From the IMG/VR virus record IMGVR_UViG_3300042888_000268: DNA of 64,000 bases; one strand, 5' to 3'. Below are positions 11,676-42,586 of the stretch, piece after piece. The stretch comes from an uncultured virus (IMG/VR IMGVR_UViG_3300042888_000268). Its lineage: Duplodnaviria; Heunggongvirae; Uroviricota; Caudoviricetes. A model generated the notes under the pieces. That model saw only the letters and a list, made by a program, of their open reading frames with translations, did no database searches and was not told the origin of the DNA. Numbering within the stretch: the first letter of the stretch is position 1; every line of letters starts with the position of its first letter. The translations under genes and the position numbers were made by a program.

Positions 11676-11683
11676 AATCTTAT

Positions 11684-17225: not shown

Positions 17226-20200
17226 TTACTTTCTTCTTTGGAACTCTTGACCTTTAAGAGCTTTTACCGGGTCTATTTGAGATCCGGTAATACCAAAGAT
17301 CTTAGCTGCATCATTAATAAATTTAGGACTATCTTGCTTTTGGAAGCTGTAAGGACCCGCATCTTTTTTATAGAATGCTCCTTTATCATCCGTCATATAT
17401 CCTACAAGATGATCTAAGAAATCCATAGGTTGTTTTAATGTAACCCCGTATATAGCATCAGGCATAATAATGTTTCTACCTGTAGCTTTTACTTGAGACC
17501 ATGAAGAGAACTGTTGAGTCTCGTTAAGTGTACCTAACATAACCACTATACCATGATTAAATAACCAACCTTGAAAGTTAAAGTCTTTTTCATTAAGAGC
17601 ACCACTACGCTTTCTCATCTTTTCAAAACGGTCTTCATCATCACCATCATATCCAAATACTAAACCTAACATTGAGAATAATACTACTTGATGAGCTATG
17701 TCTGCAACAAACTTAACGAAGTTTTTCTTCTCTTCTAGACTCATCATGTTATAGTTACCTACACCATATTTAAAGAAGTCTCTAGCAGTCTTTAATACAG
17801 AAGTGTAATATCCTGTAGTAACTGTTCCTAAAGCAGCACTAGGTCTTGTAGCACCCACTCTGTTCATAAGCATAGAGGTAAAGAATTTCTTTAAGAATGC
17901 TACTAGTCTAAAGGCAGCATAACGTTGTGCCTCAGGCTGATCCATTCTAGAATAAGTACCTTGTAATCTATTAGATACTTCATGCATAGTGTTCTTAGTT
18001 CTATTAAACTCTTCTCCTCCAACATCATACTTCTTATCAATTCCCTCTTTTAGAGTGATCTGACCATTAACTACTTGCCAAGCATCAATATATCTGATCT
18101 TCTTAGTTTGACCATTTAAAGTTTGGTCAATCTTAATATGATGCATCATTCCAGAAAACATTTCCATAGTAGCTTCTACCTCTAAGAACTTACGTGGAGA
18201 CATAAAGAAGCTTAAGCTAGCAGTGTCAGATGCAAAAGATCTACCAAACTGCTCACCTAAAGTTTTATCAAACATACCCTGTCCTGGATCAAATACTTGT
18301 ATAAGCTGTGCATCTAATGATCTATTACCAGTCTTATATAATTGAGCACTATGTGCTAATATCATCTTAAGAGCTCTAGGTTTTCCTAACAAATAACTTT
18401 GATAGTTTATATATTTAGATCCGGCTGCTTCAATACTTAATTGAACAACTGCTCCCATTCTGTTCTTTAATGCAGATGGTAATACATTAAATGAGAAGAA
18501 CCCAAAGCTAGCTAAACTCATCACCTGACTTTGGAACTTAAGTAATGCAGGACTGTTAGCAAACCAACCAGCTTGGTTAACACCCTCAAACTCACGCTCG
18601 TATAATCTTTGTATAGCACTTGCTCTTACAGACTCACCTTTCTTAGTTAAATAAGATACACGTCCAGTCTTTTGGAACATCCACTTATTAATCTTACTCA
18701 TATCTTTTACAGCGTTATCAGGATCAGCTATAGAAGTCTTAAGTGCTTGAGCAAATGGATTAAGCTCAACTAATTTCTTTTGTCTTAAACCTGAATGCAT
18801 ATACTTAAGCATAGAGTCACCAATATTCATACTAACTTGATCTAACTCTAGATTGTAAAGACCTGTAATAGGTACTTTTTTAATCTCTTCATCAAACATA
18901 TTAGTATAAACTAACTGCTCAGGATTAAAGTTTAAACCGTCTTGATAGTCATCATTAGCTTTAAAGAACATTTGTTTAATTCCTCTCATCCATTCTTTAG
19001 CCTTGCTAGCTTCCTTATCTGTAGTAGTCCCTTGTAAATATTCTAATCTAGGTTTACGGTATCTAGGAATTTGTAGATACAATCTACTCTCTCTAGGCAA
19101 ACCCTCTTGGAACTTAAGATGGAACTCTTTAAACTTTTCTAGTACAGCAAAAGCAGTAGGTCTTTCTCTTCTTAATTTCTCATAAGCAGGATTCATATAC
19201 TTATCATCAACGGCTCCTTCTGCTACAGTTTTAGGTAACCAGTTACCTTTATTGTCCACAGTTACCCCCACTTCTTTTTTAGTTCTATAGTCTTTCTTAA
19301 CTGATCTATAGAAATAAGATAGGTTAGGCTTACCTAATATCTTTTCTCCATCAGCTAGTGTAATAGTCTCAAATGACTCAGGATCATTAGGACGAGTTCT
19401 ATTCCATATAAATATACGCTCGTATACTGTCTTAGTAGTTCCTAACTCAACATCAAATACTTCTTTAGATACATGATTAGCTTTGAACCATGTTTCATAC
19501 TCAGAGCTCTCGTTAAATAATGTAACATAAGAGTTAGGTTGTAAAAGACCTTGAACAGTTTCATTATCTAGTAAAGGAAGATCTAATCTTTCCATCCAGC
19601 TATTAGCTATATCTACATAGTAATCAGTAGCTTCTTTAGATTGAAGTTCACTAAGCTTTTGGTAAATACGATTTAACTCAGCTTTCTGCATTAGGTTTAA
19701 CTTAATCTTAATACCTTTATCTACTAACTCATTCATTCTAGCAGAATCCTCAGGAGATAATCTAGTATTTATACTTTGATCTTTCTTGTTAAATAGATCT
19801 GATAACTCCTCAGTTTCAGCTTTACTTAAACCACTATATAATGTTTTCCTTTTCTCATTAATCTTTTCTTGTAGAGTCTTAGCTTTATCTTTACTCTTCT
19901 GAGTAATATCTGTTCCAATAATCTGACCATCTTGATCTCTAAATCCTGTAGCCATATCCAGCATCTCTTCCATCTCTGTAGATGAGTCAATCATGTCTCT
20001 AGTCTGTTGAGGAAGTGTTTCCATAAAGGTTCTAAGATCATTTAACACTTTGTTTCTTTCATCAAAGAACTTTTGAGTGTAAGCTACAACTGTATTATTT
20101 TTAATCCACTTATCACGTGCCTCTATAAATTCAGGGGATCCTGCAGCAATACCATCATCTACAAGAGTTTGTTCCATTCTTCTTAAGTTAGACTCAAATA

Positions 20201-22574
20201 ATCCTGGAGTAGGTACCCATTCAAAAAACTCTCTAGACTCTTTTCTATATTGACGTTCTATTTTAGCAACTTCTAACTCCTCTCCTGTTTTAGGATTACC
20301 TTCAGCATCTGTTAAAGAAGCCAATTGAGAGTATTGTCTCCATAAAAGTTTCTTTTGTTCAGAGATTTCATCATAGAAGTTCTCATCATAGTTTTGAGCA
20401 TCTAGTTCCTTAACTGTATTTAGAATAGTCTGCTTTCTTTTATAAGCTTCCTTTCCTAATTCTGACTCATATATCTTTTCTCTTTCATAGTATTCATTAA
20501 CATACTCTTGATGAAAGTAATCTCTTCTATGCTTTCTCAAATCTTTAAGAATCTGATCAGCTAATATCTCATCACCTTTTTGTAAAGCTGCATCATACTC
20601 ATGCTTTAAACGAGATGTTTCTACTGAAGTCTCTTTAAACTTATCTATAAACGACCAAACATCTTTAGTCTCAAACTCTCCCTTTTCATTCAAGAAAGGA
20701 ACCTTTTCTACAGTAACTAGGCTTTTCATTAGTTCTGTATAGTTACTACGATTATATCCAGCTGCTTTTAACAGTGGCTCCATTTCACGAATGAAGTCAT
20801 TCATATTACGTTGAGTCTGAGAATCAACATCATTGTAAGCATTTTTTAAGAACATTGCAAATCCACCAATAACAGGATCAGGAGAGTTTGTGTAAGACTC
20901 TAAGAATGCTGAATAGGCATTAGTATCTCCAGCTCTACCAGTAATAAGATCATTAATCTTTTTCTTAGTAAGTCTCATAGAGTCCCACTTCTGCTGCATA
21001 TCTTTGACCTTTTGTTCAGATCCAGATATAGCTTTTAATCTTTGTATTTCATCAGAGAAGTGTCTGTCAATACCTTCAGCTAAAGGAGTTAAGCTTTCAA
21101 ACAATACACTATCTACATTGTTTGCGTATATCTTATGCACTTTCTTTGTAGTAGTATCAATAGTATATTTCAAGCCGGCAACTAATCTTCCAAACTCAGA
21201 GTTTGTAGGTAAACCGTTGGCAGCTAATCTGTTATTAGTCTCATCTATAAAATCACTCCAGTTACGTAATAACAAATCATAATAAAATAAATTACTAATG
21301 ACATCTTTACTTTGTCCTTGAGTGGCTAATTTATCAATATGGCTACTTATACTAACTGTCATTTTATCTAGACGAAATATAGAGTGTACAAAGTTTTGAG
21401 TAGTTTTCTGTCTTATTGTAAACTTGTCAAATATCTTCTGAAGCTCTTCATTAATTTCTGTATTATCTAATGTAGACTTTAACTCTTGTAACTGACCTCT
21501 TCCTGTTTCATCAACTAAGAACTTTCTGGTTTCAGAGTAGTTCTTATTTTCTTTAATACGTCTTATATGGTTAGTAACTACATCATAGAAACGTTGTACA
21601 GTTTCAGATATAGCTAGGTATTCTACGTTCTCTAGTTCATTAGTAAAATTAGTAATATCACGCACATAGTCTACATAGTCCTGCTGACTAATCACTTCTG
21701 TATTTATATCAAACTTATCCGATCTAAGCATATCTGCTAACTGAGATAGACTAGTATTAGCTGATAGCTTTTCTACTTTAACTGCTGTACCAAAAGCTTT
21801 ACGGAGCATTTGCTTAAACGCAAATAATAACTTATTAATAAAGTCTTTAAAACCTTTACTTGTTTCTTCATTAGCGTTGTTAGCAGCTAAAGCTCTTACC
21901 AACACCTCTTGTCTAAATTGAGCAGATGTATCTTCTAAATCAGGATAAAGGTTTCTTACATCAGATATAATACTTTCCCCCTCCACTGTAGCAGATAAGT
22001 CACTATATATCTTATTAAATAGTGTTGGGTTCTCTATAAAAATAGAGGCAGCTAAAGGGTGGGCATACTCATGCAAAATATTATCTGCAGTAAATCGTCC
22101 CTCTAATAGATACACCTTACCGCTAAAAAAGAAAGCAGCTTCTCCAGTCCAAGGATTAGTTGTATCTTTTGTTAAATTTCTAGCATCCTGAGCATTGATG
22201 ACACTATAAGGTATACCAAAGCTAGTAGCTAACTGATTAGCTAATGCAACTGCTGCAGTGTTTCCAATGTCCACCTTTTGATCAGCTTCTGAAAATATAG
22301 GATTAGTCTCATCCACCTTGGTGTCTAGACCTACAATGTATTTAATAGATGGTTCTCCATTAGAATCTTTTTCTAAATCAGAATCAATTACCTCCCAGTA
22401 ACCATACTTATCTTTAAAAGTTTCAGTGTATGGTTGAGCCCAATATCTTAAAGCCTTTTCAGCATTAGGCTGAACAGCTAAGATATCTTTATAAAGGATT
22501 GACTCTTTACCATTAGGAGCCAACACTTTTTCAATGTCACTAGTTTCTTTATTACGAATTATGCTACAAGCCAT
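17226..22574 (-). CDS. Giant virion cargo/ejection protein with N-terminal zincin motif
   Basis: 1782 aa; HEYAH at 22059-22073; hydrophobic segments near the C-terminus; lies directly downstream of the RNAP gene as in crAss-like phages. Confidence 0.75.
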   Translation of the reverse strand: MACSIIRNKETSDIEKVLAPNGKESILYKDILAVQPNAEKALRYWAQPYTETFKDKYGYWEVIDSDLEKDSNGEPSIKYIVGLDTKVDETNPIFSEADQKVDIGNTAAVALANQLATSFGIPYSVINAQDARNLTKDTTNPWTGEAAFFFSGKVYLLEGRFTADNILHEYAHPLAASIFIENPTLFNKIYSDLSATVEGESIISDVRNLYPDLEDTSAQFRQEVLVRALAANNANEETSKGFKDFINKLLFAFKQMLRKAFGTAVKVEKLSANTSLSQLADMLRSDKFDINTEVISQQDYVDYVRDITNFTNELENVEYLAISETVQRFYDVVTNHIRRIKENKNYSETRKFLVDETGRGQLQELKSTLDNTEINEELQKIFDKFTIRQKTTQNFVHSIFRLDKMTVSISSHIDKLATQGQSKDVISNLFYYDLLLRNWSDFIDETNNRLAANGLPTNSEFGRLVAGLKYTIDTTTKKVHKIYANNVDSVLFESLTPLAEGIDRHFSDEIQRLKAISGSEQKVKDMQQKWDSMRLTKKKINDLITGRAGDTNAYSAFLESYTNSPDPVIGGFAMFLKNAYNDVDSQTQRNMNDFIREMEPLLKAAGYNRSNYTELMKSLVTVEKVPFLNEKGEFETKDVWSFIDKFKETSVETSRLKHEYDAALQKGDEILADQILKDLRKHRRDYFHQEYVNEYYEREKIYESELGKEAYKRKQTILNTVKELDAQNYDENFYDEISEQKKLLWRQYSQLASLTDAEGNPKTGEELEVAKIERQYRKESREFFEWVPTPGLFESNLRRMEQTLVDDGIAAGSPEFIEARDKWIKNNTVVAYTQKFFDERNKVLNDLRTFMETLPQQTRDMIDSSTEMEEMLDMATGFRDQDGQIIGTDITQKSKDKAKTLQEKINEKRKTLYSGLSKAETEELSDLFNKKDQSINTRLSPEDSARMNELVDKGIKIKLNLMQKAELNRIYQKLSELQSKEATDYYVDIANSWMERLDLPLLDNETVQGLLQPNSYVTLFNESSEYETWFKANHVSKEVFDVELGTTKTVYERIFIWNRTRPNDPESFETITLADGEKILGKPNLSYFYRSVKKDYRTKKEVGVTVDNKGNWLPKTVAEGAVDDKYMNPAYEKLRRERPTAFAVLEKFKEFHLKFQEGLPRESRLYLQIPRYRKPRLEYLQGTTTDKEASKAKEWMRGIKQMFFKANDDYQDGLNFNPEQLVYTNMFDEEIKKVPITGLYNLELDQVSMNIGDSMLKYMHSGLRQKKLVELNPFAQALKTSIADPDNAVKDMSKINKWMFQKTGRVSYLTKKGESVRASAIQRLYEREFEGVNQAGWFANSPALLKFQSQVMSLASFGFFSFNVLPSALKNRMGAVVQLSIEAAGSKYINYQSYLLGKPRALKMILAHSAQLYKTGNRSLDAQLIQVFDPGQGMFDKTLGEQFGRSFASDTASLSFFMSPRKFLEVEATMEMFSGMMHHIKIDQTLNGQTKKIRYIDAWQVVNGQITLKEGIDKKYDVGGEEFNRTKNTMHEVSNRLQGTYSRMDQPEAQRYAAFRLVAFLKKFFTSMLMNRVGATRPSAALGTVTTGYYTSVLKTARDFFKYGVGNYNMMSLEEKKNFVKFVADIAHQVVLFSMLGLVFGYDGDDEDRFEKMRKRSGALNEKDFNFQGWLFNHGIVVMLGTLNETQQFSSWSQVKATGRNIIMPDAIYGVTLKQPMDFLDHLVGYMTDDKGAFYKKDAGPYSFQKQDSPKFINDAAKIFGITGSQIDPVKALKGQEFQRRK

Positions 22575-22577
22575 ATG

Positions 22578-28500: not shown

Positions 28501-31500
28501 AACGCTTTAAGTATAGCATCTATATTCAATTCATTACCCTGCGTTCCAGCTATAACAAAACTGCTGTTTTTAATTCCTTGAAATTGTGAAACAAACACAT
28601 CTTCTACTTGTCTAGTAGTTGGACTAGATTCAGTAAATTCTATACGGAAACCACCAGTTTCAGCTGAATTAATAATACGAACCTCTTTAACTAGTATACG
28701 ATATACACTAAAGTCACGTACAAAACTGATCCACATCTTTTGATAAGGCCAATCTTTAGCTTGTACATGATCCATAGGATTACCTAGACGATCAACTAAA
28801 TACTTTATCTCAGGATACTTAGCAGATGCTTCTATAAGTTTATTGTACATCTGAACATCAGACGTAGCTCCTTGAACAGCATTAATAATAATTCCCCATG
28901 TTCTATTAAAGTCAGCTAATTTAGCCACACCTAAACTGTTTAATTTAGGTTTACCTGTTTTAGGATCAATTGCCGGAAGACTCTTTACTAAATATACACT
29001 TTCACTACTAGCTAGTTCTCTAACAGATAACTCGTTACCTTTTCTTTCAAAAACATTTTTACCAAAGTTTTCTTCAAGTTGCTTATCAGTTAAACTTAAA
29101 CCATCTTCTTCCTCACTTTTATTAACCTCTACATCATCTTCAGCTTCTTCTTGCTCTATAGGACTCATTTCAGAGTATCTATCTTCAAAAGTAAGATAGG
29201 AAGAACGTTTCTTATGAAAAGCTAGTATACCATCAGCTTGCTCATTTCTAGAAACCTTTTCAAATTCTCCCCAGTTATCTAATGCAAATTGAGCTATACG
29301 TCTAGCATTCTCTGATAACTCTGTGTTATTTAAAATAGTTTTAAAATCATTTCTGATCTTCTCATATAATGGTCCTAGTAATTCAGGATTAGTAAATATA
29401 ATCCCTACACTTTTATCATATGAACTTAATGTAGATGCTATTAGAGAATCCATAGTTTCTACAAGAGTTATTGAATCTTGATAGTTTAATCCTTCAGCTT
29501 TCGTATCTAGACTCTGTATTCCTTTATTAAGTAGTGAAAACTGTACATTTTTAATAGAAGGAGTATAGTCATTAATATTACCTACATATAACTTATCATA
29601 AAGTTCTTGTATGCTTTCTGTAGCTAGTGCATCTTCAGCAATTGACTTTAAACTTGCTCCTTTAAATACTTGCTTTAAGAAGTTCCATATACGTCTAAAG
29701 ATAGTATTACGTACAGGCTTACCATTTACTGTGTAGTTACCATTAGCCATGGCATATTTACGAAAATCTTCAGCCATAAACTCTTCTAACTGTAAATCAG
29801 TAGCACCATTAAACTTAACTGTTCTACCATCAGCAGTAGTAAAACTACCTGCTAACTTTCTAGCTTCAGAATACAATTCAACCTTTTGTTCTTTAGTTAA
29901 AAACATTTGAGTAAAAGCATGAAAAGCTTCATGATAGACATCACTAAAGTTAGATCCAGCATATAAAACTATACCAGAGGTAGTCCATTCACCAACGGCA
30001 TTACTATTAACTATATTAAATAAAGTTTTAAGTGCTACAAACTTGGAAAGAGGACTGGTCTTAAACCACTGCTCAGCTAGATCAATCTGTTCTTTAGTAG
30101 CTTCACTAGATAGCAGCAATGATTTCTTTAGGGAGAAGTCTTTACTATCTAATAAACTTTTAAAATCATCTATAGAATTATCTGTAGGAGTGGCTTGCTC
30201 TATTGTAGAAACCTTTTCCGCTTTGTTTACTTTTGAGCCAAACAGTTTAGTCTGAACTTCTGTAGTTGGAAAAATAGTATTATAGGCATTTAAACTTACT
30301 AATCTACCTTCAGCATTTTTAGATAAGTATGTATTAAAGTTTGCACTTAAGAAGTTGTTATAACGTTCTTTCTGCAACTGTACCTTACCATCTAAACTAA
30401 CAGGCATCTGCATAAAAGATCCAATAAGATCTTTGTTTACATTAACTGTTTGCTCTTTAAGGTTATTTACAAATGTCTCACGACCTGCAATATCTGTAGT
30501 ATCAAATTCTTGCTCTCCTTGCTTTACAAACACTTTACCTTCACGCTCAAATGCTTTAGTATCATTGCTAAAAACAAACTGCTTTAAAACATTAATCTTA
30601 TCAATATTAGATTGTGTACTATCATTAAATAGTAACTCACCTAAGTTTTCAGCTAAGTTAGTTACATTACCAAACTTTGGTCTTTGAATAAGAACTGGAT
30701 AATCATAACCTGGAACATTAAAATATACACCACCAGAAACAACTACACCAGAAGTTTGCTTAGATACCCATGGGTTAAATCCTTTTTCTAATTGTATAGA
30801 AGATATAGAACTAGCTTTACTAAAGTCTTCTTTAATATAGCCATTTCTACCAGGAGTAATTGAAAATATAAGAGACTCATCAGGGTTATTAGTTACAAAA
30901 CTACGAGCAGCATCTAATACATCTATCTCATTAGCTCTTTGCTCTTGTATACTTTTAATATCTTCTTCAGTCTTATCAGACTTACTTACTAATTCCTCAA
31001 CAGTTTGTACTCTTGGTATATAACGTTGACCACTTCTATCTGTATAAGCATTTCTTAACTTACCATAAACTAATCTACCACCTTCTTCTTTAGTAGTAAT
31101 GTTACCTTCTTGATTAAAGTATAATATGTTTCCAGCCTTATCTGTATATACTAAAGCTAATCCTGTAGCATTATGTTTAGCTTTATTCTCCTCACTCTGA
31201 TTGATGTATGCTCTATCAGATATGTATAACTCATCTTCAGCTATTGTATTAGCTTTTACAAGCTTCATGTAAATACCTTTAACATTATTTAATTTAACGT
31301 TATCAGCAGTTTGAAAGTTGTATTTATCCATTAACTCATTAAGCTTTCTCACTACAGCGTAGTAAGTCTTCTTAGCTGGATCTGGATCAGGAATATTATC
31401 TGTAGCTACAGCTCCATCATATTCTTTAGCTTCTTGATTAAATACAGCTAAACCACTTTCTGGAGTGGCAGTAAAATTATTACCGGATTTGTAAGCTTGC

Positions 31501-31940
31501 TTCTTTAACTCAATATCTTTTTGCTCAATCTCAGTATAAACTTCTGTAGGAATAACAGGTGTAGAAGGATTGCTCTCCTCTACAATTTGCTCTACTACTT
31601 CATTAACATTACTGTTCAGTCCTAAAAAAGATACTACATTCTCTATATCCTTAAACTCTTTTCTTAATTTATTAAGAGCATTAAAATCTACACCACTATC
31701 AGTTAAATAATCAGCAATCTTCTCTTCACTACCATAAGCTGATGCAATCATTCTAGGAATATGCTGAACATAGTCTAAAGCATTATCTCTATCTCCTGAT
31801 GCATTAAAAATCATAGCATAGAAATCACGCATAAATCCCTCAGGACTATACTGCTGTCCATTATTTTTACCTGCTGCAATACTACCTATTACTGCTTTAA
31901 ATAATAATTCTACTTGATCGTCTGATAATCTACATGCCAT
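22578..31940 (-). CDS. Virion-packaged single-chain RNA polymerase (two-barrel, crAss-like) with zincin domain
   Basis: RIPVQG...GSDFDIDKL catalytic motif (25515-25532) and HEAFH...EEFMAE zincin motif (29919-29933). Likely start MACRL at 31940, 1 nt after the upstream stop, giving ~3120 aa. Confidence 0.9.
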   Translation of the reverse strand: MACRLSDDQVELLFKAVIGSIAAGKNNGQQYSPEGFMRDFYAMIFNASGDRDNALDYVQHIPRMIASAYGSEEKIADYLTDSGVDFNALNKLRKEFKDIENVVSFLGLNSNVNEVVEQIVEESNPSTPVIPTEVYTEIEQKDIELKKQAYKSGNNFTATPESGLAVFNQEAKEYDGAVATDNIPDPDPAKKTYYAVVRKLNELMDKYNFQTADNVKLNNVKGIYMKLVKANTIAEDELYISDRAYINQSEENKAKHNATGLALVYTDKAGNILYFNQEGNITTKEEGGRLVYGKLRNAYTDRSGQRYIPRVQTVEELVSKSDKTEEDIKSIQEQRANEIDVLDAARSFVTNNPDESLIFSITPGRNGYIKEDFSKASSISSIQLEKGFNPWVSKQTSGVVVSGGVYFNVPGYDYPVLIQRPKFGNVTNLAENLGELLFNDSTQSNIDKINVLKQFVFSNDTKAFEREGKVFVKQGEQEFDTTDIAGRETFVNNLKEQTVNVNKDLIGSFMQMPVSLDGKVQLQKERYNNFLSANFNTYLSKNAEGRLVSLNAYNTIFPTTEVQTKLFGSKVNKAEKVSTIEQATPTDNSIDDFKSLLDSKDFSLKKSLLLSSEATKEQIDLAEQWFKTSPLSKFVALKTLFNIVNSNAVGEWTTSGIVLYAGSNFSDVYHEAFHAFTQMFLTKEQKVELYSEARKLAGSFTTADGRTVKFNGATDLQLEEFMAEDFRKYAMANGNYTVNGKPVRNTIFRRIWNFLKQVFKGASLKSIAEDALATESIQELYDKLYVGNINDYTPSIKNVQFSLLNKGIQSLDTKAEGLNYQDSITLVETMDSLIASTLSSYDKSVGIIFTNPELLGPLYEKIRNDFKTILNNTELSENARRIAQFALDNWGEFEKVSRNEQADGILAFHKKRSSYLTFEDRYSEMSPIEQEEAEDDVEVNKSEEEDGLSLTDKQLEENFGKNVFERKGNELSVRELASSESVYLVKSLPAIDPKTGKPKLNSLGVAKLADFNRTWGIIINAVQGATSDVQMYNKLIEASAKYPEIKYLVDRLGNPMDHVQAKDWPYQKMWISFVRDFSVYRILVKEVRIINSAETGGFRIEFTESSPTTRQVEDVFVSQFQGIKNSSFVIAGTQGNELNIDAILKAFPYNDLFGKGNRTIIDEDKAFEFLRAIGFYLTDNRAVKQKVYDNYTAVYYLYKGIQDLKKYNIKTTNPVLALRSEVKIEGESVYKGESSSVSKILEIEATDSGKYSNNSVQNVEGNREHDLSLNNTITKVLSELNDKDKDYNEMVSQPHMSHLDYRKNPFAKYSIWLNSLFHIPVGKVFDLSNKNKRKTSKASYGATNVTINIDNLNGIKNVIENIVGTQSASTGIKTSQLDPISKFLMDVHTMLIRGVMELSRHAAKSTAYGVSVSKIDTEFNQNANHLYISSGYFADRVKSHNATVSLLKPKIAAEMERIAILKAGKADNIPGFNERGLTFTMFDDILSDSLKTDLIAVANEKDSLSILDDPKFAERISNDINNYINNLVDENFEIFVTLPYMSEEILFGGKGIPSLSNLVRKDTGLNIGKGKEQELTMIALRSFTVNALIHNMEAVSILYADLAMYNHDKDEFHKRNAAIGSTGRSFSFSESTSMFINNIGRAYANKIGAAQRSSDGVINSVVFKDNKVDSVYFEEYVTALVNSGKYTKEQAEKILSPYKEMTEGDAQGWITFDSYRILSLLEGAWSPKQNELYNKIINDEVVDPAEITEFFPTKKFQYAGPVKTEKLHVQVLHKFSLMPLIPSMVKGTNMETLHDNLVKQGVDYALFESGSKMATITSNGKPDSLYENDDYAARSIKSWNEGEAEYTKNGVFIQYLKDQVDIQSTWKNKTIFSTQLRTLIINDLFKQGIPISKDFELLVSRFEKLLDVLQEGKKKELLEQAGWKEDAKGNLSGSTESLMNFVQKELDRQGLPEHDIDFIKNFGLQSDLSFSLNAEKIEKLLNSIVIKRLVRQKMNGEQLVQVSGAGFESGFKNPTEDQLARYGTNDLPTYRPGKGKNGSTSAMKVKIAMKGDYYKLLELKHTDGKKIGTIERLNEVLKNDKWLDKNDNRKLITMVGVRIPVQGFNSMEFMEVYEFLPEEAGSIIVPPAEIVAKSGSDFDIDKLTIFQPNYKFDNEEATYATGKSVKAIENQIIETIRQILEHPDNFDALIRPNNTDIVKGVADELSVENIQGYNPLANKTKEQGSKISPTRTLEPRYNLYKHESNNIGKRTLGIGAVDNKYSSIFKRVGARLEKQYTHYPIDPITKEYKVKNGKVVTEIRPINIRMKHNMVTKDGKSYISLSDVETVTGDKISDLISQLMNGWVDIEKDAWIFNINGNNVAGPVLLFLLETGVDFKTAAYFVSQPLVIKYIKDRAKRNSPFYEAAGNEVSKGKGLDKYNIRKEFIIRNFYEDLTIDKKTGRPRETENGDIIVSNADIYRIINKYNGNQEYTADGLLGNIKEKNTQSEMAKAALLHFFELEDLMSQLTNVKLTVNLDTAPSKSLYSAQERLSKIDKLKNVDAVNQSLVKDILYNSPIKSFLVQAFQLKLWKPLMKLRGDEIINNYLINKINTGKYKKTFEDAEKYVAAFKNDIPMYLMQNYVKGIDLKNIKEYKGLLINKSIPVEKVQIKYGAFVKEGVMYVDPQQIALDFDQKEYAGKGYESLQLAKTDIGAFQMGPKRSQNLQEYTHFVLEREYLRSVIPMKENQSREAYEQILADRALERTFNFYTILKSKNSIADEFLNIKRVYPELEQEYIIMDQIGFIGEAGKNKGRKLRTLKLKSDKLDSEMINVLHENLVRLSDVGTLKVADKAKNLEVSKFFSRLIVAEYLRAGINKSGSTLSSILPTETLMKLLEEPMKEVLEKGMSEEFLNKYSDIFDSNWSSNSSSSRLRYRNYIQYTESTGETVARDMEEGQSDFREAGKATVYDNPRTNSEIKDFETVINSNKESIFVYPTNQDGIAEVLTTPYKTAGNSVGIPIKQKGGSQSWSDESYDSNVDLINQALEVIDNHLGNGTKVVFPSSGLTTILGKEDAQIDVLKDKAPRTYTYLVSELYKKYGYVNPGAESNLGFRKEFQSSQPITDEEIESIIEQKVEESKNCNS

Positions 31941-31941
31941 A

Positions 31942-34900
31942 TTATGCACCTTTAGTTTTACAACCCATGTTGTCAATTATATTCTGAATATTATTACTGT
32001 TGTCTTTTCCTGTGTTAGCCATTACATCATTGATAGCATTCTTAACTCTAGCTGCATCAGATGTAAAACTATCTACAGTATCTTTAGAAGCTTCTACTTC
32101 TGGTTTATTCTCAGGAGCAACCTCTACTTGTACAGTTTCTTCAACTGCTGCAATCTTACCGTTCTCTACCATCTTAATTTTTTTAGATATTTCAGCAGCT
32201 GGTACAACTTCTAGACCCTTAGATTTACTATTGAAAAGTTTAACCTTTATAGCATCCTTAGTCATTGACTTTACTATACCTTTTCTACCGTCAGTAAAGA
32301 TAACTATATCTCCTGTCTTTATATCATTTATAGATAAGTTTTCAGATAGTTCTTGACGTCTTTTTTCCACCATGTCAATTATTTCTTTTGAAGTAACTTC
32401 TCCAGAGCTAATTAAATCTAACAGCTTGAAAGTGAATGGGTTACCATTTACAGCATTTAAGTTAGGTAGGTCCTTAATAGAAGATACCGAATTTAATATA
32501 TCTTGAGCTTTTTTAAGTCCACTTTCTTTAGTAGGTTCTATATTTTCTTCTGTAACTACAGACTCAGGTCCTTTAACACTAAGATATGCATCTGTAAGAG
32601 CTTTTATAAACCAGTTTTTTCCTCCTGTTTCCCAAACTGTATTTCTAGATGTAGGTTGATGTGTAGCTTTTGATAACCAGCTTTTACCACCAGCTTTATC
32701 TATTTCAGATACTAATCTAGGATACTGTTCTAACTTAGCTTTTAAGATTTCAACCATTAAGTTATAAGTACTATTTGGACCATCATCTTTAGTAGCAGTT
32801 CCTTTTAATGCTTGATAAGCAGCTTCTGCATCAGGGTATTCTTTTCCACGAACAGTTACAGGATAAGACTCTGTCAAGTTTCCTTTCTTTTTAGCTAACT
32901 CAGTTGGGTTAGTAAGAGCAGCAGCTAATCCCTTAGAATTAGAAGATATCTCTACAGAATCTACAGAAGGTGTGGGTTCAGTTGGAGCAGATTCAGTAGT
33001 AGGTACTTGAGCGTTTTTATAATAGGTATCTTTAATACGAGATGCTGTAGTAGATGTAGCAATATAGTTTTCAAATGTAATATCTGAATCATTACTTATT
33101 ACATAGTTATCATGAGCTGCTCTTAATAAAGCTTCAAGATCTGCAGGAAGTTCTTCAGTAGGTTTAGCTTCTTGTACAGGAGTCTCAACTACTGGAGCTG
33201 GTGCTTCTTCTACAGGAGCTGGCTCAGGTTGATCCTTAATCTCATCATCAATTTTCATGATGTCATTAGCAAGAATAGCTTTCTCAGATGTAGGATCTAA
33301 AGGTTGTCCTGTAGCTGCATCCAAGAATGTAGTAGGTCTAACATCATTTTCAACAAAGTCTTCTAGCTGTTCAGGAGTAATCATTATTCCTTGAGCTGCT
33401 AAAGTCTTTAGTAAATTATTAAACTCCATCATCCTTTGAGCTTTGTCTATACGTTCAGCTACATTTTCATCTTTACTACCCCAAAGCGTTGTATAATACT
33501 CACTAATAGATTCAGCTAACTTATATAAATTTGTAGGATCAAGAAGAGTGTTAACAGCGTTATTATGATCTTTAGAATCTTGATTTAGAGAGTAATAGTC
33601 TAACACTTTAGCAAAAGAATCATCAATCTTCTCATTAAAAACGTAATCGTTATTAACAGAAGCTAATTGCTTTAAATACTTTTCATAGCTTTTTCTTAAA
33701 GCATTAGTAGTATCTTCAGAGAATTGAATCTTAAACTGTCCATTCTCTTCCACCTCATTAGCAGATAAAGATTCTAAGTGAGAGTTTAATTTATCTTTAT
33801 AGTCTTGCAAGCTTTCTAACTTAGCAGTCTTCTGTTTTATAAGTTTCTTCTGCTCAGCCGTTGGTTCTACATATCCTGTTATTTCTTTCTTTAAAGTATC
33901 TATTTCATTGTTAATATCGTTAATATCAAACAATACACTTAAGTCACTATTAGATGCTTTTGCTACAGGTTTATCTGCAACAAGATCTGAATACACTTTA
34001 GTCATTCTTTCAAGAGATCTATCAAAACTATGTTGAGATGCTACAGCTACTCTTTTAGCCTGCTCAAAAGCTTTATAAGCAATAGCTTCTCCTTCAAACT
34101 CAGGAGTCTTAGCTTTATAAGCTCTTGGGTTAAAAGGATTAGCAAACTGTGTATTTACAACCTCATATCTATTCTTAATCTCTTTAGCTCTAGATACTAT
34201 CTCATCAAGCTTTTCACTAGCTTTTTCTGTTTTAGCTATACCCAAGAAGTCAGCTAATTCATCATTATCAAGCTTTTTAAGCTCAGCATAGCTACTAAGT
34301 AAGTTATCAAATGTACCATTATCTAAAGCTTGAAATACATGATCAAATGTTCTTATATCCTTAGCGTCTTGAAAAGTTTTAGCATCACCGTTTTCTTCAG
34401 CTGTATTCATAGCATCCGCAGATTTTTTCTGAATAACTGCACTTTCATTCTTAGAGCTAAAATACTTTAATGGATTACTATACATCTCATTAAGTCCTGC
34501 TATAGCATCAGCTTTAGATATAGCTTTAGCTTCTTTATACTCAGCATATTTAGTAGGGTCACTAAGTTGGTAATAGATATTAGGAGCTTTATTTAAAAAT
34601 GCATTTTGACTTACTCCAATAAATCCTCCCATTAAGAATCCTGATGCAAATGTTTCAGCACCTTGTGCAGTGGTAGCCTCTTTCTTAATAGCATTCCATG
34701 CTAATCCAGAACCATACTCTAATGAACCAACTGTACCATCTTTATAAATACCATCATAATAGTTTTTAACAGATTCAGAAACTATGTTCTGAGCATTCTC
34801 TTGGAAACCTTCAGCTAGATTTCTTTTACTATAGTTAAGGAATCTACCAAACTGTGCACCATAATATCTTGCAGAGGTTAAATTCTTTTTAGCACCTTCC

Positions 34901-36261
34901 ATAAAACCTAAGGCAGCTTCATCTGTAAAGCCTACACCTTTCTTAAACCCAATACCTTTCTCTAGAAGTGTAGCTTCTTTACTTAAGTTATCTAAACTTC
35001 TAAATCCTCTAAACTTAAATAGACCGTCAAAAGTTACACGGTTTGTAGCATATATAATAGGAAAGTTAATAGCTGTTACACCATAACCTACATCTTCAGC
35101 TTGCTTATAAATCTTTTCTAAGTCAGCTCCTTCAGCTGGCTTACCATTCTCTTGTTCATATAAAGACAATAATCTTTCAGCTTCTTCTCTTTTAGCAGAA
35201 CCACCTTCTAATTTAGATTCAGATAGTGCTAAGTTAGCATCTCTCATATCTCTATAGAAAGAACCAAAGGTTTGTTTCATCTTAGCAAAGTTGCTTAAGT
35301 TTCTTACACTTGCACTTCCTTTTGCTATATCCATTAAATCTTGAGTAGTTCTTGAAGCAGGATTGACAAAGTTAAATAAACCTTTACCTAAAGTGCCACT
35401 ACCAGCTTTTACAGCTGTATAAAAATCTTTTGCATCTCCTACCTTTCCTAAAGACTTAGCAAGTTGAACACTTCCTTTAAATACATTACCTACAGCATTT
35501 AGTTTAAAAGCTTTACTAAGTCTTTCCATATTCATAGCAGTTCTAGCTGCTACTAGTGGAGTGGCTCCACCAACAGTTAGTGCTTCTAAACCAGCCATTG
35601 CCATTTCTTCAGCAAGAATACTTACACCAATACCAACAGTATATGCAGAGTTTAATACAAAGTTATTAACAAAACCTCCAAAGCCTCCTCGGCTTGACAT
35701 ACCAATAGAGTTAGCTTTATCAAAGCCCTCAGCAGTCTTATCATCAGGAGAGAAAAAGTCTTCACCAGAAAGTATAGATCCCATTGATCTATATCCACCC
35801 ATAGCACCTTCATAAGCTAGACTACCAAATACACCAGACATTCTACCTAGGTCATTCCATATAGTAGTCTTCTCATTAAAAATCTTTTCATTATCTGTAA
35901 AAGGAACAAAGCCCACTCTATTAAAAGTGGACTTACCATATCCTAAGTATCTATCAATATTAGATTTATTAGCATCAAACTCTACAACTCTTGCTCTTTG
36001 TATTGGATCACGTGAGCCTTCTTGAGCTCTAAGAATACCTTCACTACCAAACTGCTTTAAAGATTTCATTTGCTTATTGTAATTAGCAATTAAATCTGTT
36101 TTAGTAGCAGGTTTAGGTTTAGGAATAGGATCTTGCTGTTCTAATTGTTCTACATTAACTCCTGACAATGGGTCCATAGGATCATCTATACCAGAAAAAT
36201 CCAAGCCAGTATTAACTTCTTGAGTTTCATCAAGACTATTATCTAATGGTTCTAATGCCAT
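31942..36261 (-). CDS. Large virion cargo/ejection protein with NADAR-like insert
   Basis: 1439 aa; Gly/Ala-rich hydrophobic segments, EGFQENAQ motif, coiled coils and a NADAR-like segment at ~32570-32960. Confidence 0.7.
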   Translation of the reverse strand: MALEPLDNSLDETQEVNTGLDFSGIDDPMDPLSGVNVEQLEQQDPIPKPKPATKTDLIANYNKQMKSLKQFGSEGILRAQEGSRDPIQRARVVEFDANKSNIDRYLGYGKSTFNRVGFVPFTDNEKIFNEKTTIWNDLGRMSGVFGSLAYEGAMGGYRSMGSILSGEDFFSPDDKTAEGFDKANSIGMSSRGGFGGFVNNFVLNSAYTVGIGVSILAEEMAMAGLEALTVGGATPLVAARTAMNMERLSKAFKLNAVGNVFKGSVQLAKSLGKVGDAKDFYTAVKAGSGTLGKGLFNFVNPASRTTQDLMDIAKGSASVRNLSNFAKMKQTFGSFYRDMRDANLALSESKLEGGSAKREEAERLLSLYEQENGKPAEGADLEKIYKQAEDVGYGVTAINFPIIYATNRVTFDGLFKFRGFRSLDNLSKEATLLEKGIGFKKGVGFTDEAALGFMEGAKKNLTSARYYGAQFGRFLNYSKRNLAEGFQENAQNIVSESVKNYYDGIYKDGTVGSLEYGSGLAWNAIKKEATTAQGAETFASGFLMGGFIGVSQNAFLNKAPNIYYQLSDPTKYAEYKEAKAISKADAIAGLNEMYSNPLKYFSSKNESAVIQKKSADAMNTAEENGDAKTFQDAKDIRTFDHVFQALDNGTFDNLLSSYAELKKLDNDELADFLGIAKTEKASEKLDEIVSRAKEIKNRYEVVNTQFANPFNPRAYKAKTPEFEGEAIAYKAFEQAKRVAVASQHSFDRSLERMTKVYSDLVADKPVAKASNSDLSVLFDINDINNEIDTLKKEITGYVEPTAEQKKLIKQKTAKLESLQDYKDKLNSHLESLSANEVEENGQFKIQFSEDTTNALRKSYEKYLKQLASVNNDYVFNEKIDDSFAKVLDYYSLNQDSKDHNNAVNTLLDPTNLYKLAESISEYYTTLWGSKDENVAERIDKAQRMMEFNNLLKTLAAQGIMITPEQLEDFVENDVRPTTFLDAATGQPLDPTSEKAILANDIMKIDDEIKDQPEPAPVEEAPAPVVETPVQEAKPTEELPADLEALLRAAHDNYVISNDSDITFENYIATSTTASRIKDTYYKNAQVPTTESAPTEPTPSVDSVEISSNSKGLAAALTNPTELAKKKGNLTESYPVTVRGKEYPDAEAAYQALKGTATKDDGPNSTYNLMVEILKAKLEQYPRLVSEIDKAGGKSWLSKATHQPTSRNTVWETGGKNWFIKALTDAYLSVKGPESVVTEENIEPTKESGLKKAQDILNSVSSIKDLPNLNAVNGNPFTFKLLDLISSGEVTSKEIIDMVEKRRQELSENLSINDIKTGDIVIFTDGRKGIVKSMTKDAIKVKLFNSKSKGLEVVPAAEISKKIKMVENGKIAAVEETVQVEVAPENKPEVEASKDTVDSFTSDAARVKNAINDVMANTGKDNSNNIQNIIDNMGCKTKGA

Positions 36262-38138: not shown

Positions 38139-38176
38139 AAAGTTAAACTATTTTAAAATCAATTAGATGAATCATA

Positions 38177-39544
38177 TTATAGATCATCAGGAGTATTCTC
38201 TTTATTTGGATTATTAAACCCGTCCTTAAATAAGCTATCTAATAGAGAATCATCGTCAGTAGAATCATCTTTATCTTTACCATCTTTATATTTACCTCTT
38301 TCAGCTATTTCTATCATTGTATAATCATGTCTAGCCTTTAAGGTGCTTAATGCATTACGTAGTGCTAAACTACTATTTAATTGAGACATTGCAACAGGAT
38401 CAGCTTTAACAGAAATATCACTATTCTTATACGCTAAATACTTAGCAATTTTATTAGATATTCCAGTATAACCATATTGAGAAACTGCTCCATCAGCCGC
38501 AGATCTTAAATCATTTATATTACTAAGATCTAATGTAGATTGTTTAGCTACTCTATCTCTAGCTGATACAATAGACTTATCTAGTAAATCTATTCTTTGC
38601 ATATCTGTAAGGTAATCTAAGTGTTCTTGAGATCCAGGAATAATACCTTTTGTAGATATTAACTTATCCCAACTTTCTTTTTTTCCTCTCAATGCTTTTA
38701 AATCTTGAGAATCAACTTGTAACTGAGCTTGTAAACCAGAGTTTATAGTTGTCATAACATCTTTAATATAAACTTGCTCAGCTGCTTGATTAGATCCGTA
38801 TTTAGCTGCATTAGCTTTAACAAAATCTTTACGCTGAACAAATGCCTCAGCATTCAACATATCTTTAATAGCAGGATCATTATCAAATAAAGTGCTAACC
38901 ATACTCTGTGTTAAAGGTACAGCTAATTCTCCATTCTTTTGAGTCCATATATAACCACCAGTTATCTGATCTTTCTTTACAGAGATGCCAGACTCTTTGT
39001 ACATTTTTTCAGCTAATGTAAATAAATCTACATTAGGAATATAAGAAGGAGAGGATGCACGTAATGCATCTTGAGATGAACCATTTTTAAATTCTTCAGC
39101 TTGATAGTCAAGTAATTTTCTACCAGTATCCCAATACTGTCTTCTAGTAGCAGGATCTTGAGATGACTTTAACTGTTCAGCTTTAGCCACTTCATTTTGA
39201 TACTGTCTAGTAAACTGAATATCTTTTACAATACTTTGATCTGTAGTTACAGGTTCAAATAGTTTAGTAGCTATCTCCTGGTTTTGAGGAAGAGATAGAT
39301 CAAGAGCAGAGACCTTTTTAAGACCCTCATCAATTGCTTTAAGATAGGCATCTCTCCTTTGGATGTCTTCATTTCTTAACATGCTGGAATTAAAAACTGA
39401 CTCATACAAGTTTTTAACTCGTTGAGCTCCTTGCTTGTACATACCTTCTCTCTGCTGCAGCATTCTTTCTACCCTGTTAAAATCAGGAGTATAGAGCACT
39501 GGCTCAGGAAAAACATCTGTAATATTTGGGATATAGCTTGCCAT
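38177..39544 (-). CDS. Putative virion cargo protein
   Basis: 455 aa, helical, Cys-free; first gene after the promoter motif at 39551. Confidence 0.6.
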   Translation of the reverse strand: MASYIPNITDVFPEPVLYTPDFNRVERMLQQREGMYKQGAQRVKNLYESVFNSSMLRNEDIQRRDAYLKAIDEGLKKVSALDLSLPQNQEIATKLFEPVTTDQSIVKDIQFTRQYQNEVAKAEQLKSSQDPATRRQYWDTGRKLLDYQAEEFKNGSSQDALRASSPSYIPNVDLFTLAEKMYKESGISVKKDQITGGYIWTQKNGELAVPLTQSMVSTLFDNDPAIKDMLNAEAFVQRKDFVKANAAKYGSNQAAEQVYIKDVMTTINSGLQAQLQVDSQDLKALRGKKESWDKLISTKGIIPGSQEHLDYLTDMQRIDLLDKSIVSARDRVAKQSTLDLSNINDLRSAADGAVSQYGYTGISNKIAKYLAYKNSDISVKADPVAMSQLNSSLALRNALSTLKARHDYTMIEIAERGKYKDGKDKDDSTDDDSLLDSLFKDGFNNPNKENTPDDL

Positions 39545-39550
39545 AGTTGT

Positions 39551-42583: not shown

Positions 42584-42586
42584 ATA

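Follow-up and report, generated by a model that had tools for sequence, protein, structure and literature searches.

Gene content of the cargo region

The window, that is, the whole 64,000-nucleotide stretch of uncultured virus DNA analyzed here, carries three giant cargo genes in series, encoding a gp67-like protein, a virion RNA polymerase (RNAP), and a gp65-like zincin protein (Table 1). The intergenic gaps within this trio are 1 and 3 nucleotides long. Upstream on the same strand, Pfam matches to CrAss_Ring_1 (E 6e-11) and CrAss_Ring_2 (E 3e-21) place the trio in a crAss-type structural context, and a 1674-aa muzzle-like protein matches the virion-structural family phrog_37948. The giant proteins themselves had no PHROG matches, and the phage is distant from cultured crassviruses. 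Four smaller cargo genes also lie upstream; the 1238-aa product has one transmembrane (TM)-like segment in a Kyte-Doolittle scan, and ORFs at the same positions in IMG/VR relatives have no terminal cysteine and 0 to 4 internal ones. Packaging in the virion is known by mass spectrometry only for the orthologues of crAss001 (PMC10172136) and phi14:2 (preprint).

Table 1. Positions of the cargo genes and their features in the window
Feature	Coordinates	Strand	Basis
Four further Cys-free cargo genes (623, 455, 992, 1238 aa), upstream of the chain	36267..46303	-	
gp67-like cargo protein P0001, 1439 aa, first chain link; sole Cys at residue 1434	31942..36261	-	
Cys1434 codon of P0001 (position -6), motif ..N-M-G-C-K-T..	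31960..31962	-	
Virion RNAP P0002, 3120 aa, middle link; Cys solely at 3 and 3118	22578..31940	-	
Cys3 codon of RNAP, head M-A-C-R-L	31932..31934	-	
HExxH motif of RNAP protein (H670, E671, H674)	29919..29933	-	Invariant columns, alignment A2
Catalytic D-F-D-I-D motif of RNAP (D2137, D2139, D2141)	25518..25532	-	Invariant, A2 and A5
DUF7831 domain near RNAP C-terminus (residues 2961-3070)	22731..23060	-	Pfam PF25176, E 6.5e-10
Predicted RNAP C-terminal tail helix, residues 3101-3118, ending at Cys3118	22587..22640	-	AF2 model
Cys3118 codon of RNAP, third residue from the end, ..K-N-C-N-S	22587..22589	-	
gp65-like zincin protein P0003, 1782 aa, last link; sole Cys at residue 3	17226..22574	-	
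Cys3 codon of P0003, head M-A-C-S-I-I-R-N	22566..22568	-	
N-terminal head module of P0003, residues 1 to ~85, portable domain starting with Cys	22320..22574	-	
Zincin motif (HExxH) of P0003, H-E-Y-A-H, residues 168-172	22059..22073	-	
Hydrophobic TM-like segment of P0003, residues 1622-1640	17655..17711	-	Kyte-Doolittle mean 1.85 over 19 residues

P0002 has the makeup of a two-barrel RNAP with a DxDxD motif that is homologous to phi14:2 gp66: it matches PDB 6VR4 chain A (the gp66 RNAP) in phmmer (E 6.3e-27), shows tblastn matches to annotated crAss RNAPs, and is ~23% identical to gp66, in which the D-F-D-I-D motif was designated catalytic (gp66 preprint). The mechanically called ORF begins at a TTG (31976); the ATG at 31940 was preferred as the start because a cysteine occupies residue 3 in 35 of 71 homologues, most of them starting MAC. 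An AF2 model of the last 250 residues predicts an alpha/beta domain in the DUF7831 region (block-mean pLDDT mostly 73 to 94) and the tail helix at model residues 231 to 248, the latter with moderate pLDDT (~66 to 68) and as a prediction only. The tail is conserved in alignment A6.

P0003, downstream of the RNAP, is a zincin-like HExxH protein in which E169 and H172 are invariant in alignment A1. Its fold matches to zincin peptidases are weak (Z 5.5 to 6.8; Foldseek E > 0.01), and gp65 was called zincin-like in the gp66 preprint. Its N-terminal head module has matches in 249 representative clusters (E <= 1e-3), which lie almost without exception at the very N-terminal end, and it is also found on bodies carrying PF18760, PF12705, or PF13589 domains. 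In the AF2 model, residues 1 to 80 have a block-mean pLDDT of 85 to 96, with the first strand predicted from residue 4, and the best fold match is 6VR4 chain B residues 2 to 95 (Z 7.2, rmsd 2.3 Å, 71 residues aligned).

Cysteines in the cargo proteins of the window and their homologues

A scripted count on the translations found four cysteines in total in the three giant proteins, at position -6 of the 1439-aa protein, +3 and -3 of the RNAP, and +3 of the zincin protein, and none in the 623-, 455-, 992-, and 1238-aa cargo proteins. By the same count, the muzzle-like protein has 17 cysteines and the tail proteins reach 4.9 to 5.9%. The sequence-only reading, in which the four cysteines had been counted and placed by eye, the other four cargo proteins judged Cys-free, and the muzzle and tail proteins Cys-rich, was reproduced exactly. 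At the background rate of the remaining window ORFs that reach 150 aa (27 ORFs with 121 Cys in 8,967 aa, 1.35%), ~130 cysteines were expected in the 9,649 cargo residues, versus 4 observed (Poisson P ~4e-50), and under uniform placement the probability that all four 6-residue facing windows contain one cysteine apiece is ~2e-11. On these two grounds, chance is excluded as the source of the pattern.

The same placement recurs in each protein family, with the proviso that relatedness (phylogeny) inflates all homologue and junction counts given here. Among gp67-like homologues, 58 of 62 have exactly one cysteine, located in the last 10 residues, with a tail logo of N-L-G-C-K-T in those 58 and a single internal cysteine in 96,586 aa. 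For the RNAP, a cysteine lies in the last 10 residues of 69 of 71 homologues (offsets -1 to -6) and in the first 6 residues of 53 of 71, most of the others being N-terminally extended or truncated, and 29 internal cysteines occur in 250,049 aa; both C3 and C3118 are invariant in a 14-sequence RNAP alignment reaching down to 29% identity. One RNAP homologue of 4847 aa (P0107) has no cysteine at all, which counts against a chain. Gp65-like proteins carry a cysteine at residues 2 to 5 in 50 of 51 cases, with 7 internal cysteines in 101,958 aa, and C3 of P0003 is among the invariant columns of both A1 (8 such columns) and A3 (4 such columns).

Facing cysteines are paired at gene breaks and lost upon fusion

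The sequence-only reading also held that a C-terminal cysteine should co-occur with an N-terminal one in the next protein and that both should vanish where the genes are fused, and it noted that the outer ends of the trio lack cysteine, as a linear chain would. Both comparative expectations were borne out, and its interpretation is supported in part. In 68 IMG/VR loci with 207 adjacent giant-ORF pairs, both facing cysteines were present in 126 pairs, neither in 80, and one alone in a single pair with a doubtful start; counting distinct pairs only, which still share ancestry, the figures were 93, 71, and 1 (Fisher P 1e-46). Each additional gene break brings one more cysteine pair, as in 7 four-link chains, whereas a fully fused ORF of 8083 aa (L136) has no terminal cysteine. 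Exceptions at the outer ends were limited to 2 of 51 N-termini and 1 of 62 C-termini, and are read as threshold artifacts or a doubtful start. In 14 annotated genomes (Steigviridae, Intestiviridae, Suoliviridae, and Flavobacterium phage FpV4), paired cysteines were found at all 8 split gp67-like/RNAP junctions, with a start correction needed in one, and at all 11 split RNAP/gp65-like junctions; of the fused forms (6 and 5, respectively), none had the terminal cysteine. Judged from these sequences, the facing-cysteine rule is deeply conserved across hundreds of relatives.

In all 94 distinct junctions, the cysteine lies 1 to 7 residues from the C-terminus and at residues 3 to 7 of the N-terminus, leaving 0 to 6 residues after the former and 2 to 6 before the latter. 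Internal cysteines amount to 0.0064% of 455,896 chain residues, versus 255 terminal ones. In the 6 of 6 loci in which the head module is internal, no cysteine precedes it (P0220 has a lysine there), and in P0214 the sole cysteine is residue 8 of a new N-terminal extension; the cysteine tracks the terminus rather than the domain. The RNAP of locus L171 is 91% identical to that of locus L169, yet its last 26 residues are 77% identical to the tail of the 583-aa middle link of L169, and the downstream head is common to both. In this natural tail swap, the last ~26 residues follow the head of the partner rather than the body that carries them. Two observations count against a chain: in 7 of 74 head-module loci (6 when counted as distinct), all that lies upstream is a short ORF lacking a terminal cysteine, and p-crAssphage gp47 and FpV4 gp30 each bear a lone terminal cysteine without an evident partner. 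The sequence rule itself, its conservation, the pairing, the loss upon fusion, and the tail-head specificity are established by these data.

Comparison with known systems

The orthologous trios of phi14:2 (gp67-gp66-gp65, gp66 being PDB 6VR4) and crAss001 (gp47-gp50-gp49), each with a downstream zincin, follow the pattern of the window, with terminal cysteines at -1 and +3, then -2 and +3 in phi14:2, and at -3 and +5, then -9 and +5 in crAss001. The crAss001 atlas (PMC10172136) and the gp66 preprint do not use the word "cysteine" and mention disulfides for tail proteins only; the atlas lists many inter-subunit disulfides in crAss001 virions, solely for tail and portal-vertex proteins, gp47, gp49, and gp50 not being resolved. 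The presence of disulfides in the particle favors a coupling bond, although those of the tail could have formed during aerobic purification. No description of head-to-tail cysteine coupling in Crassvirales was found in the literature searched.

The sequence-only reading knew of no such mechanism anywhere, and on this point it has to be corrected. In a PNAS 2025 report (PMC12002296), cryo-EM of the pre-ejectosome of Anabaena phage A-4L (A4) revealed a disulfide between gp27 Cys1715 and gp26 Cys5, with the gp27 C-terminal helix sitting in a gp26 cleft. Cys1715 is the sole cysteine of the 1717 residues of cyanophage A-4L gp27, third from the end, and Cys5 the sole one of the 1114 residues of gp26, so that A4 and the window share a single cysteine near the upstream C-terminus and a single cysteine near the next N-terminus. 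In both, the upstream cysteine is borne by a C-terminal helix (an AF2 prediction for the crassviruses), and gp27 and gp26 are both packaged and ejected, as crass cargo is taken to be. The A4 case differs in that a single link joins two proteins, which belong to an ordered pentameric ring in a T7-like phage, whereas the crass chain would have 2 to 3 links in series and 5,000 to 9,000 residues including an RNA polymerase; the authors present the bond as a local stabilizer, neither as a rule nor as a chain (PMC12002296). A4 gp26 to gp29 had no phmmer match at E <= 1 to the 187 proteins of this analysis, and no A4 chain was among the matches of fold searches with the window models. The parallel is an analogy only.

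Cysteine suppression in ejected proteins has been published for N4-like Schitoviridae, where N4 gp50 (the virion RNAP), gp51, and gp52 and DEV gp71 to gp73 are near Cys-free, like crass cargo (PMC11445570), the rationale given being passage of the envelope in an unfolded state. The N4 RNAP has 0 cysteines among the 3,492 residues covered. N4 unites its functions in one chain without terminal cysteines, whereas the crassviruses have a split chain with one cysteine pair per break; a wholly Cys-free type, termini included, is ruled out for them by the 255 terminal cysteines. Crass cargo also resembles the polyvalent proteins of phages and conjugative elements (Iyer et al. 2017, PMC5512222), which are likewise injected, giant, and multidomain and include zincin-like peptidase domains; release of their domains is explained by autoproteolysis, unlike in the model proposed here, and that paper contains no occurrence of "cysteine" or "disulfide."

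Two other coupling types were rejected. Intein halves comprise an N-intein of ~100 aa starting with Cys and a C-intein ending in Asn before a +1 Cys; a split intein with protein trans-splicing is contradicted by the 0 to 6 and 2 to 6 flanking residues, and no intein family was found in Pfam. In a zinc hook, both partners carry a CxxC, or a Cys together with a His or Asp that is conserved; such an inter-chain metal hook does not fit one cysteine per terminus and no conserved ligand in the anchored logos.

A head-to-tail disulfide chain as the proposed explanation

On balance, a head-to-tail disulfide chain is probably the explanation of the pattern as a whole. The four cysteines would form two coupling sites. 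The last ~20 to 26 residues of the upstream protein would make a helix ending in the cysteine, and this tail would dock on the next protein at its small N-terminal head domain, in which the first strand starts just past that protein's own cysteine. The two thiols would then oxidize to an intermolecular disulfide in the assembled or released particle; by analogy with A4, such a bond probably exists at crassvirus junctions. It counts against the bond that the cytoplasm of the anaerobic hosts is reducing, which would confine oxidation to assembly or a later stage. The product would be one covalent thread of 6,341 residues, running N to C in the same sense throughout from the gp67-like protein through the RNA polymerase to the zincin protein, with branch stubs of only 2 to 5 residues at the joints. 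The remaining cysteines would have been purged, and consequently no wrong cross-link could arise among proteins unfolded to pass the tail. The link would hold the trio in a fixed order for storage and ejection, and thiol reductants of the host cytoplasm would undo it. Ordered threading as one chain is an extension that we offer tentatively, and release by reduction in the host is put forward with the same reserve.

Real disulfides might instead act as static staples that hold a folded cargo complex in the head, ensuring co-packaging and 1:1:1 stoichiometry, with no single-thread exit and with a link that may break before or during ejection. The A4 cysteine pair does sit in a folded pentameric ring, stabilizing a helix-in-cleft contact in the authors' account (PMC12002296), and both the tail-head specificity of L169 and L171 and the folded head domain model fit docking of folded parts. 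A staple could, however, sit anywhere on an interface, yet the cysteine hugs the termini in 94 of 94 distinct junctions, a placement that threading would predict because branch stubs must stay short, and the crass cargo lacks ordered density in crAss001 (PMC10172136). We regard static staples as unlikely. Quite improbable, in our estimation, is a metal bridge (for instance through Zn, Cu(I), or Fe) or a key non-covalent contact between facing termini, with no disulfide. The anaerobic habitat and the reducing host cytoplasm disfavor early oxidation and would suit such a site, as would the histidine beside the cysteine in some ..K-H-C.. tails (Suoliviridae-like loci) and M-A-K-H-C heads, but anchored logos of 58, 53, 69, and 50 termini show neither a second Cys nor any His or Asp conserved at a set distance, two thiolates alone are a poor structural metal site, and the sole solved case with the same signature, A4, is a disulfide (PMC12002296).

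We give still less credence to each terminal cysteine bonding the portal barrel, inner capsid, or muzzle, which would anchor the cargo instead of chaining it. The particle does have Cys-rich structural proteins, crAss001 has many inter-protein disulfides (PMC10172136), and a few cargo proteins carry an unpaired terminal cysteine, but such strict pairing of facing cysteines (both in 126 cases, neither in 80, one alone in 1) would be unexpected, joint loss upon fusion and Cys-less outer ends would not be predicted, and the L169/L171 tail swap points to a partner-specific contact. Finally, that the termini are merely Cys-tolerant, or the codons part of junction nucleotide signals, as the tight gene packing (1 and 3 nucleotides) and the use of TGT in 165 of 188 junction Cys codons might suggest, has virtually no likelihood, being contradicted by the pairs kept in crAss001 and cr128_1 despite non-adjacent partner genes on opposite strands (which rules out a nucleotide or translational-coupling signal), by the absence of cysteine from the equally tolerant outer termini, and by the invariance of C3 to the same degree as catalytic residues.

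If the head-to-tail disulfide chain holds, it may represent a more general code, although this broader reading is doubtful. Crassviruses, and probably many podophages with giant proteins, would mark each break with a cysteine pair and partner-specific tails of ~25 residues; a thread of 5,000 to 9,000 residues would leave end to end, and host reduction would cut it, freeing and perhaps activating the RNAP. The bond would then serve as a redox arrival sensor for the RNA polymerase, and the order of the chain, hence the order of ejection, would be readable from sequence alone.

Cysteine distribution in the cargo block

The cargo genes of the window lie on the minus strand after the gene for a 1674-aa muzzle-like protein and encode, in order, proteins of 1238, 992, 455, 623, 1439, 3120, and 1782 aa. 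The 1439-aa protein is gp67-like. The 3120-aa protein is a virion RNA polymerase (RNAP) matching PDB 6VR4, the gp66 RNAP of phi14:2 (E 6e-27), and its D-F-D-I-D motif is invariant in the alignment. The HExxH motif of the 1782-aa protein is also invariant, and its counterpart is the zincin-bearing gp65. The CrAss_Ring_1 and CrAss_Ring_2 families are found upstream of the cargo block, and the window phage is a distant crassvirus. A PHROGs search returned no family for any of the three giants, and blastn with the junction as the query matched none of 50,697 phage records.

The sequence-only reading had placed all cargo cysteines at the facing ends of these three giants, and a script count over the seven proteins (9,649 aa) agrees with it exactly, finding 4 cysteines at those positions (see the table). 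Since cysteine makes up 1.35 % of the remaining 27 window ORFs of at least 150 aa, about 130 would be expected in the cargo, and the Poisson probability of 4 or fewer is ~4e-50. For all four facing windows of 6 residues to hold one cysteine apiece, the probability is ~2e-11. The cargo-cysteine pattern is real and far beyond chance. Two very Cys-rich proteins of the structural block contrast with the Cys-free cargo, and a 200-aa protein is encoded on the opposite strand immediately beyond the block of cargo genes.

Positions of cysteines and associated features in the window and in compared records
Feature	Record	Position (strand)	Description
Cys of 1439-aa gp67-like protein	Window	Residue 1434/1439	Script count of translation
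Cys of 3120-aa RNAP	Window	Residues 3 and 3118/3120	Script count of translation
Cys of 1782-aa gp65-like protein	Window	Residue 3/1782	Script count of translation
DUF7831 of RNAP	Window	22731-23060 (-)	Sole Foldseek matches weak, to PTP-fold phosphatases (best E 2.5e-3, TM 0.30-0.42)
Structural-block protein, 408 aa	Window	58190-59416 (-)	20 Cys
Structural-block protein, 269 aa	Window	60669-61478 (-)	16 Cys; Gly run at end
200-aa protein	Window	16447-17049 (+)	DUF5522 and cyclic-phosphate-processing receiver domain (cREC_REC); 7 Cys
RNAP interruption	cr108_1 (L011, NC_055878)	21833-22124	~290 nt break the frame exactly within the catalytic motif (..G-S-D stop ... Y-D-I-D-K..)
2208-aa structural protein	csAssE-Sib (L001, OR575929)	Within 4745-14253	Sole Cys is the last residue
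282-aa protein	csAssE-Sib (L001, OR575929)	22430-23275	8 kb off; sole Cys at +5

Conservation of the terminal cysteines

Each giant was searched against a collection of 5.8 billion proteins. A cysteine occupies residues 2-5 in 50 of 51 gp65-like matches, with 7 internal cysteines in 101,958 aa. The 71 RNAP matches carry one within the last 10 residues (69 proteins) and the first 6 residues (53 proteins), with 29 internal in 250,049 aa, and 58 of 62 gp67-like matches have exactly one, within the last 10 residues (1 internal in 96,586 aa). C3 is among 8 invariant columns across 34 gp65-like sequences (the alignment took 33 of the 51 matches) and is invariant together with the catalytic residues in 32 RNAPs (31 of the 71 matches); neither C3 nor C3118 varies in an alignment of 14 RNAP sequences.

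Errors of gene calling seem to account for most exceptions. The start of P0013 corresponds to Met29 of a 90 %-identical protein and that of P0099 to residue 22 of a relative, while P0092 is missing 688 residues. The four gp67-like proteins without cysteine are short (938-1319 aa), three of them from contigs of 4-7.3 kb. Fifteen RNAP homologues without an N-terminal cysteine are long (3,518-4,847 aa); 11 of them keep HExxH, and its shift by +860 to +1,730 residues suggests that these proteins are extended at the N-terminus. By blastp, 4 of the 15 are colinearly similar to gp67-like proteins, and an HMM of gp67-like N-terminal parts matched 1 of the 15; beyond the four supported by blastp, the long RNAPs are read as fusions because of the HExxH shift. 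One of the 15, P0107, has no cysteine at all, and metagenome and viral scans for its neighbour yielded no relative.

Pairing across junctions and loss upon gene fusion

Of 117 phage records matching the RNAP, 14 genomes were picked by name for taxonomic spread, before cysteine inspection, and compared at the gp67-like/RNAP (J1) and RNAP/gp65-like (J2) junctions. J1 is split in 8 genomes, all 8 with both cysteines, although the pair in cr110_1 holds only with a corrected start (the annotated one is 14 residues longer than in its relative cr11_1). Eleven cases have a split J2 (the window, locus L005, and 9 genomes), again with both cysteines every time. Upon fusion, the N-terminus lacks cysteine at J1 (6/6), as does the C-terminus at J2 (5/5). 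Both crAss001 and cr128_1 encode the gp47-like protein, an orthologue of gp67, on the strand opposite the RNAP gene gp50, and this protein still has the C-terminal cysteine; an artefact of the junction DNA is therefore rejected as the cause of the pair.

An IMG/VR search with the RNAP as the query yielded 68 distinct loci with 10-kb flanks. Adjacent same-strand ORFs of at least 250 aa separated by at most 200 nt were scored as pairs, skipping wider gaps and 3'-cut ORFs. Both cysteines were present in 126 of the 207 pairs and neither in 80; the single discordant pair has a start overlapping its neighbour by 56 nt. Distinct pairs gave 93, 71, and 1, respectively (Fisher P 1e-46). Of the loci with complete chains, 37 have three links and 7 have four, and two apparent two-link chains proved to be artefacts (contig end; gap threshold). 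The chains sum to 5,034-9,087 aa (median 7,403), and the 455,896 aa of their members hold 29 internal and 255 terminal cysteines. At all 94 distinct junctions, the cysteine lies 1-7 residues from the C-terminal end and at residues 3-7 on the N-terminal side. In locus L136, read with TAG as Gln, all parts are fused into one 8,083-aa ORF without terminal cysteine. The earlier propositions, that a C-terminal cysteine co-occurs with an N-terminal one in the next protein and that the pair vanishes in fused genes, hold in these comparisons with hardly an exception.

Giant ORFs in several of these loci (L066, L069, L080, L084, L085, L087-L089, L091, L095, L099, L102, and L136) are open only with TAG as a sense codon (TAG=Q assumed), and those of L034 need TGA readthrough; the terminal pair is kept in all of these recoded loci but L136.

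Other cysteine layouts were observed in the annotated genomes. The cr108_1 RNAP is annotated as two genes, has no Cys pair at the interruption, and looks like it contains an intron or other insertion rather than a real protein break. Lone terminal cysteines occur in smaller cargo proteins upstream of the chain, namely p-crAssphage gp47 (L010, 857 aa, offset -2), FpV4 gp30 (L016, 598 aa, +5), and cr52_1 gp32 (L021, +9), where the adjacent gene offers no facing partner. In csAssE-Sib, the 2208-aa protein is followed by a 192-aa Cys-containing ORF and then by a 752-aa head-module protein with Cys at +5 and -2; taken with the 282-aa protein 8 kb off, this layout suggests non-adjacent chain partners. 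Thioredoxin-family genes are annotated in p-crAssphage (gp39), cr108_1, cr128_1, and ctcc615; they may concern the redox state of the cargo, or only nucleotide metabolism.

A portable head module and its partner tails

The 1782-aa protein starts with a portable head module of ~85 residues. At E <=1e-3 this module matches 249 representative clusters, in which it almost always occupies the extreme N-terminus of very different bodies. A cysteine lies within the first 8 residues of 146 of the best 150 matches. P0220 carries the module internally (residues 4104-4181), with Lys where the cysteine would be, and in P0214 it begins at residue 80 without cysteine there, the sole cysteine being residue 8 of the new N-terminus. 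Among matches of at least 600 aa, 39 of 94 have cysteine at both ends, and we read these as putative middle links. Among the best 80 of 112 IMG/VR relatives retrieved with the module, it is N-terminal in 74, all with cysteine within the first 8 residues when starts are set by an unbiased first-ATG rule; in the other 6 it lies inside a longer ORF, and no cysteine precedes it (0/6). All 63 long upstream neighbours (49 distinct) have a cysteine in their last 11 residues, and at 7 head-module loci (6 distinct) the sole upstream ORF is short and lacks a terminal cysteine.

The tail and head motif families of J1 differ from those of J2, each being conserved. In L169, the chain runs from the RNAP through a 583-aa link to an 1852-aa protein, whereas L171 lacks this link. 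The two RNAPs are 91 % identical over 3,159 residues, yet over its last 26 residues the L171 RNAP matches the tail of the L169 583-aa link at 77 % identity, and both loci have the same downstream head. This natural swap shows partner specificity, the tail going with its partner; as judged from these sequences, the cysteine belongs to the terminus and the tail to the partner.

The idea that Cys3 acts as a cysteine switch for the zincin was rejected, because the module with its cysteine is also found on RNAP and non-zincin bodies and the cysteine is lost where the module is internal. Intein, sortase-like, or leaving-group chemistry is dismissed since the cysteine is the very last residue at 19 of the 94 distinct junctions.

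Predicted structure of the termini

An AF2 model of residues 1-400 of the 1782-aa protein (alignment of 33 sequences) predicts the head domain with confidence (block-mean pLDDT 85-96, residues 1-80), with a first strand from residue 4, followed by a zincin-like domain. In structural comparison, the head scores highest against the phi14:2 gp66 N-terminal domain (6VR4 chain B, residues 2-95; 71 residues aligned, rmsd 2.3 A), with a Z of 7.2 that falls under the caution line of 8; in agreement with this match, blastp shows one gp65-like head to be weakly similar to the N-termini of some RNAPs. The last 250 residues of the RNAP are predicted to form a DUF7831 alpha/beta domain and a terminal helix (3101-3118) ending at the cysteine. 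DUF7831 contains no cysteine, which rules out a Cys-dependent phosphatase.

Searched with Foldseek against the PDB, neither model had a match at E <=0.001, and no chain of cyanopodophage A4 is among the Foldseek or VIA matches listed. A profile of alignment A3 found no phage protein among PDB sequences; its best match was EmrA (E 4e-5), and the other 11, which include several coiled coils, were weak (E > 0.09). Prediction of the tail-head complex from the window's own two segments alone, with no alignments, gave an ipSAE of 0.00 in two runs, a value that speaks neither for nor against the contact.

Comparison with known ejection systems

In the record of Anabaena phage A-4L (cyanopodophage A4), gp27 (1717 aa) and gp26 (1114 aa) have one cysteine each, which are the disulfide pair: the accessible text of the pre-ejectosome study describes these terminal cysteines as joined by a disulfide (PMC12002296). 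In the one case with a solved structure, the sequence signature thus goes with a real disulfide. The A4 and crAss-like proteins showed no similarity in sequence. For ejected proteins of Schitoviridae, the available part of one report explains cysteine suppression by passage through the envelope (PMC11445570). The N4 vRNAP has no cysteine in the 3,492 residues examined; in T7, gp15 and gp16 have none, and the sole cysteine of the internal core protein gp14 is residue 2.

The accessible part of the crAss001 atlas reports numerous disulfides between subunits in the tail and at the portal vertex, with the cargo not resolved, and holds no per-protein values for reduced versus non-reduced mass spectrometry (PMC10172136). 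Cargo cysteines are not mentioned in that part or in the available text of the gp66 preprint, nor in the 2026 N4 paper, a Crassvirales review, or the polyvalent-protein paper (PMC5512222), and a full-text literature search found no description of such a mechanism for Crassvirales.

Proposed coupling and its significance

By all sequence comparisons made here, the cargo-cysteine rule is kept throughout Crassvirales and beyond. The reading that we favour is a coupling in which the tail of one protein would dock on the head of the next and a disulfide would lock the two, giving a single covalent thread. We consider a disulfide at the crassvirus junctions probable. Threading as one chain is put forward tentatively, at somewhat less than an even chance, and reductive release is a possibility that we hold with similar reserve.

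How crassviruses pass ~700 kDa of polymerase proteins through a tail channel of <50 A is posed as an open question in the 2026 N4 paper and in the accessible part of the crAss001 atlas (PMC10172136). A conserved covalent tether would explain the 1:1:1 ratio and order of three separately encoded proteins, the purge of cysteine from nearly half a million residues, and the free fusion and fission of genes in the RNAP module. In uncultured phage genomes, the sequence rule is a marker by which annotators can recognise members of an injected chain and the true start codons.
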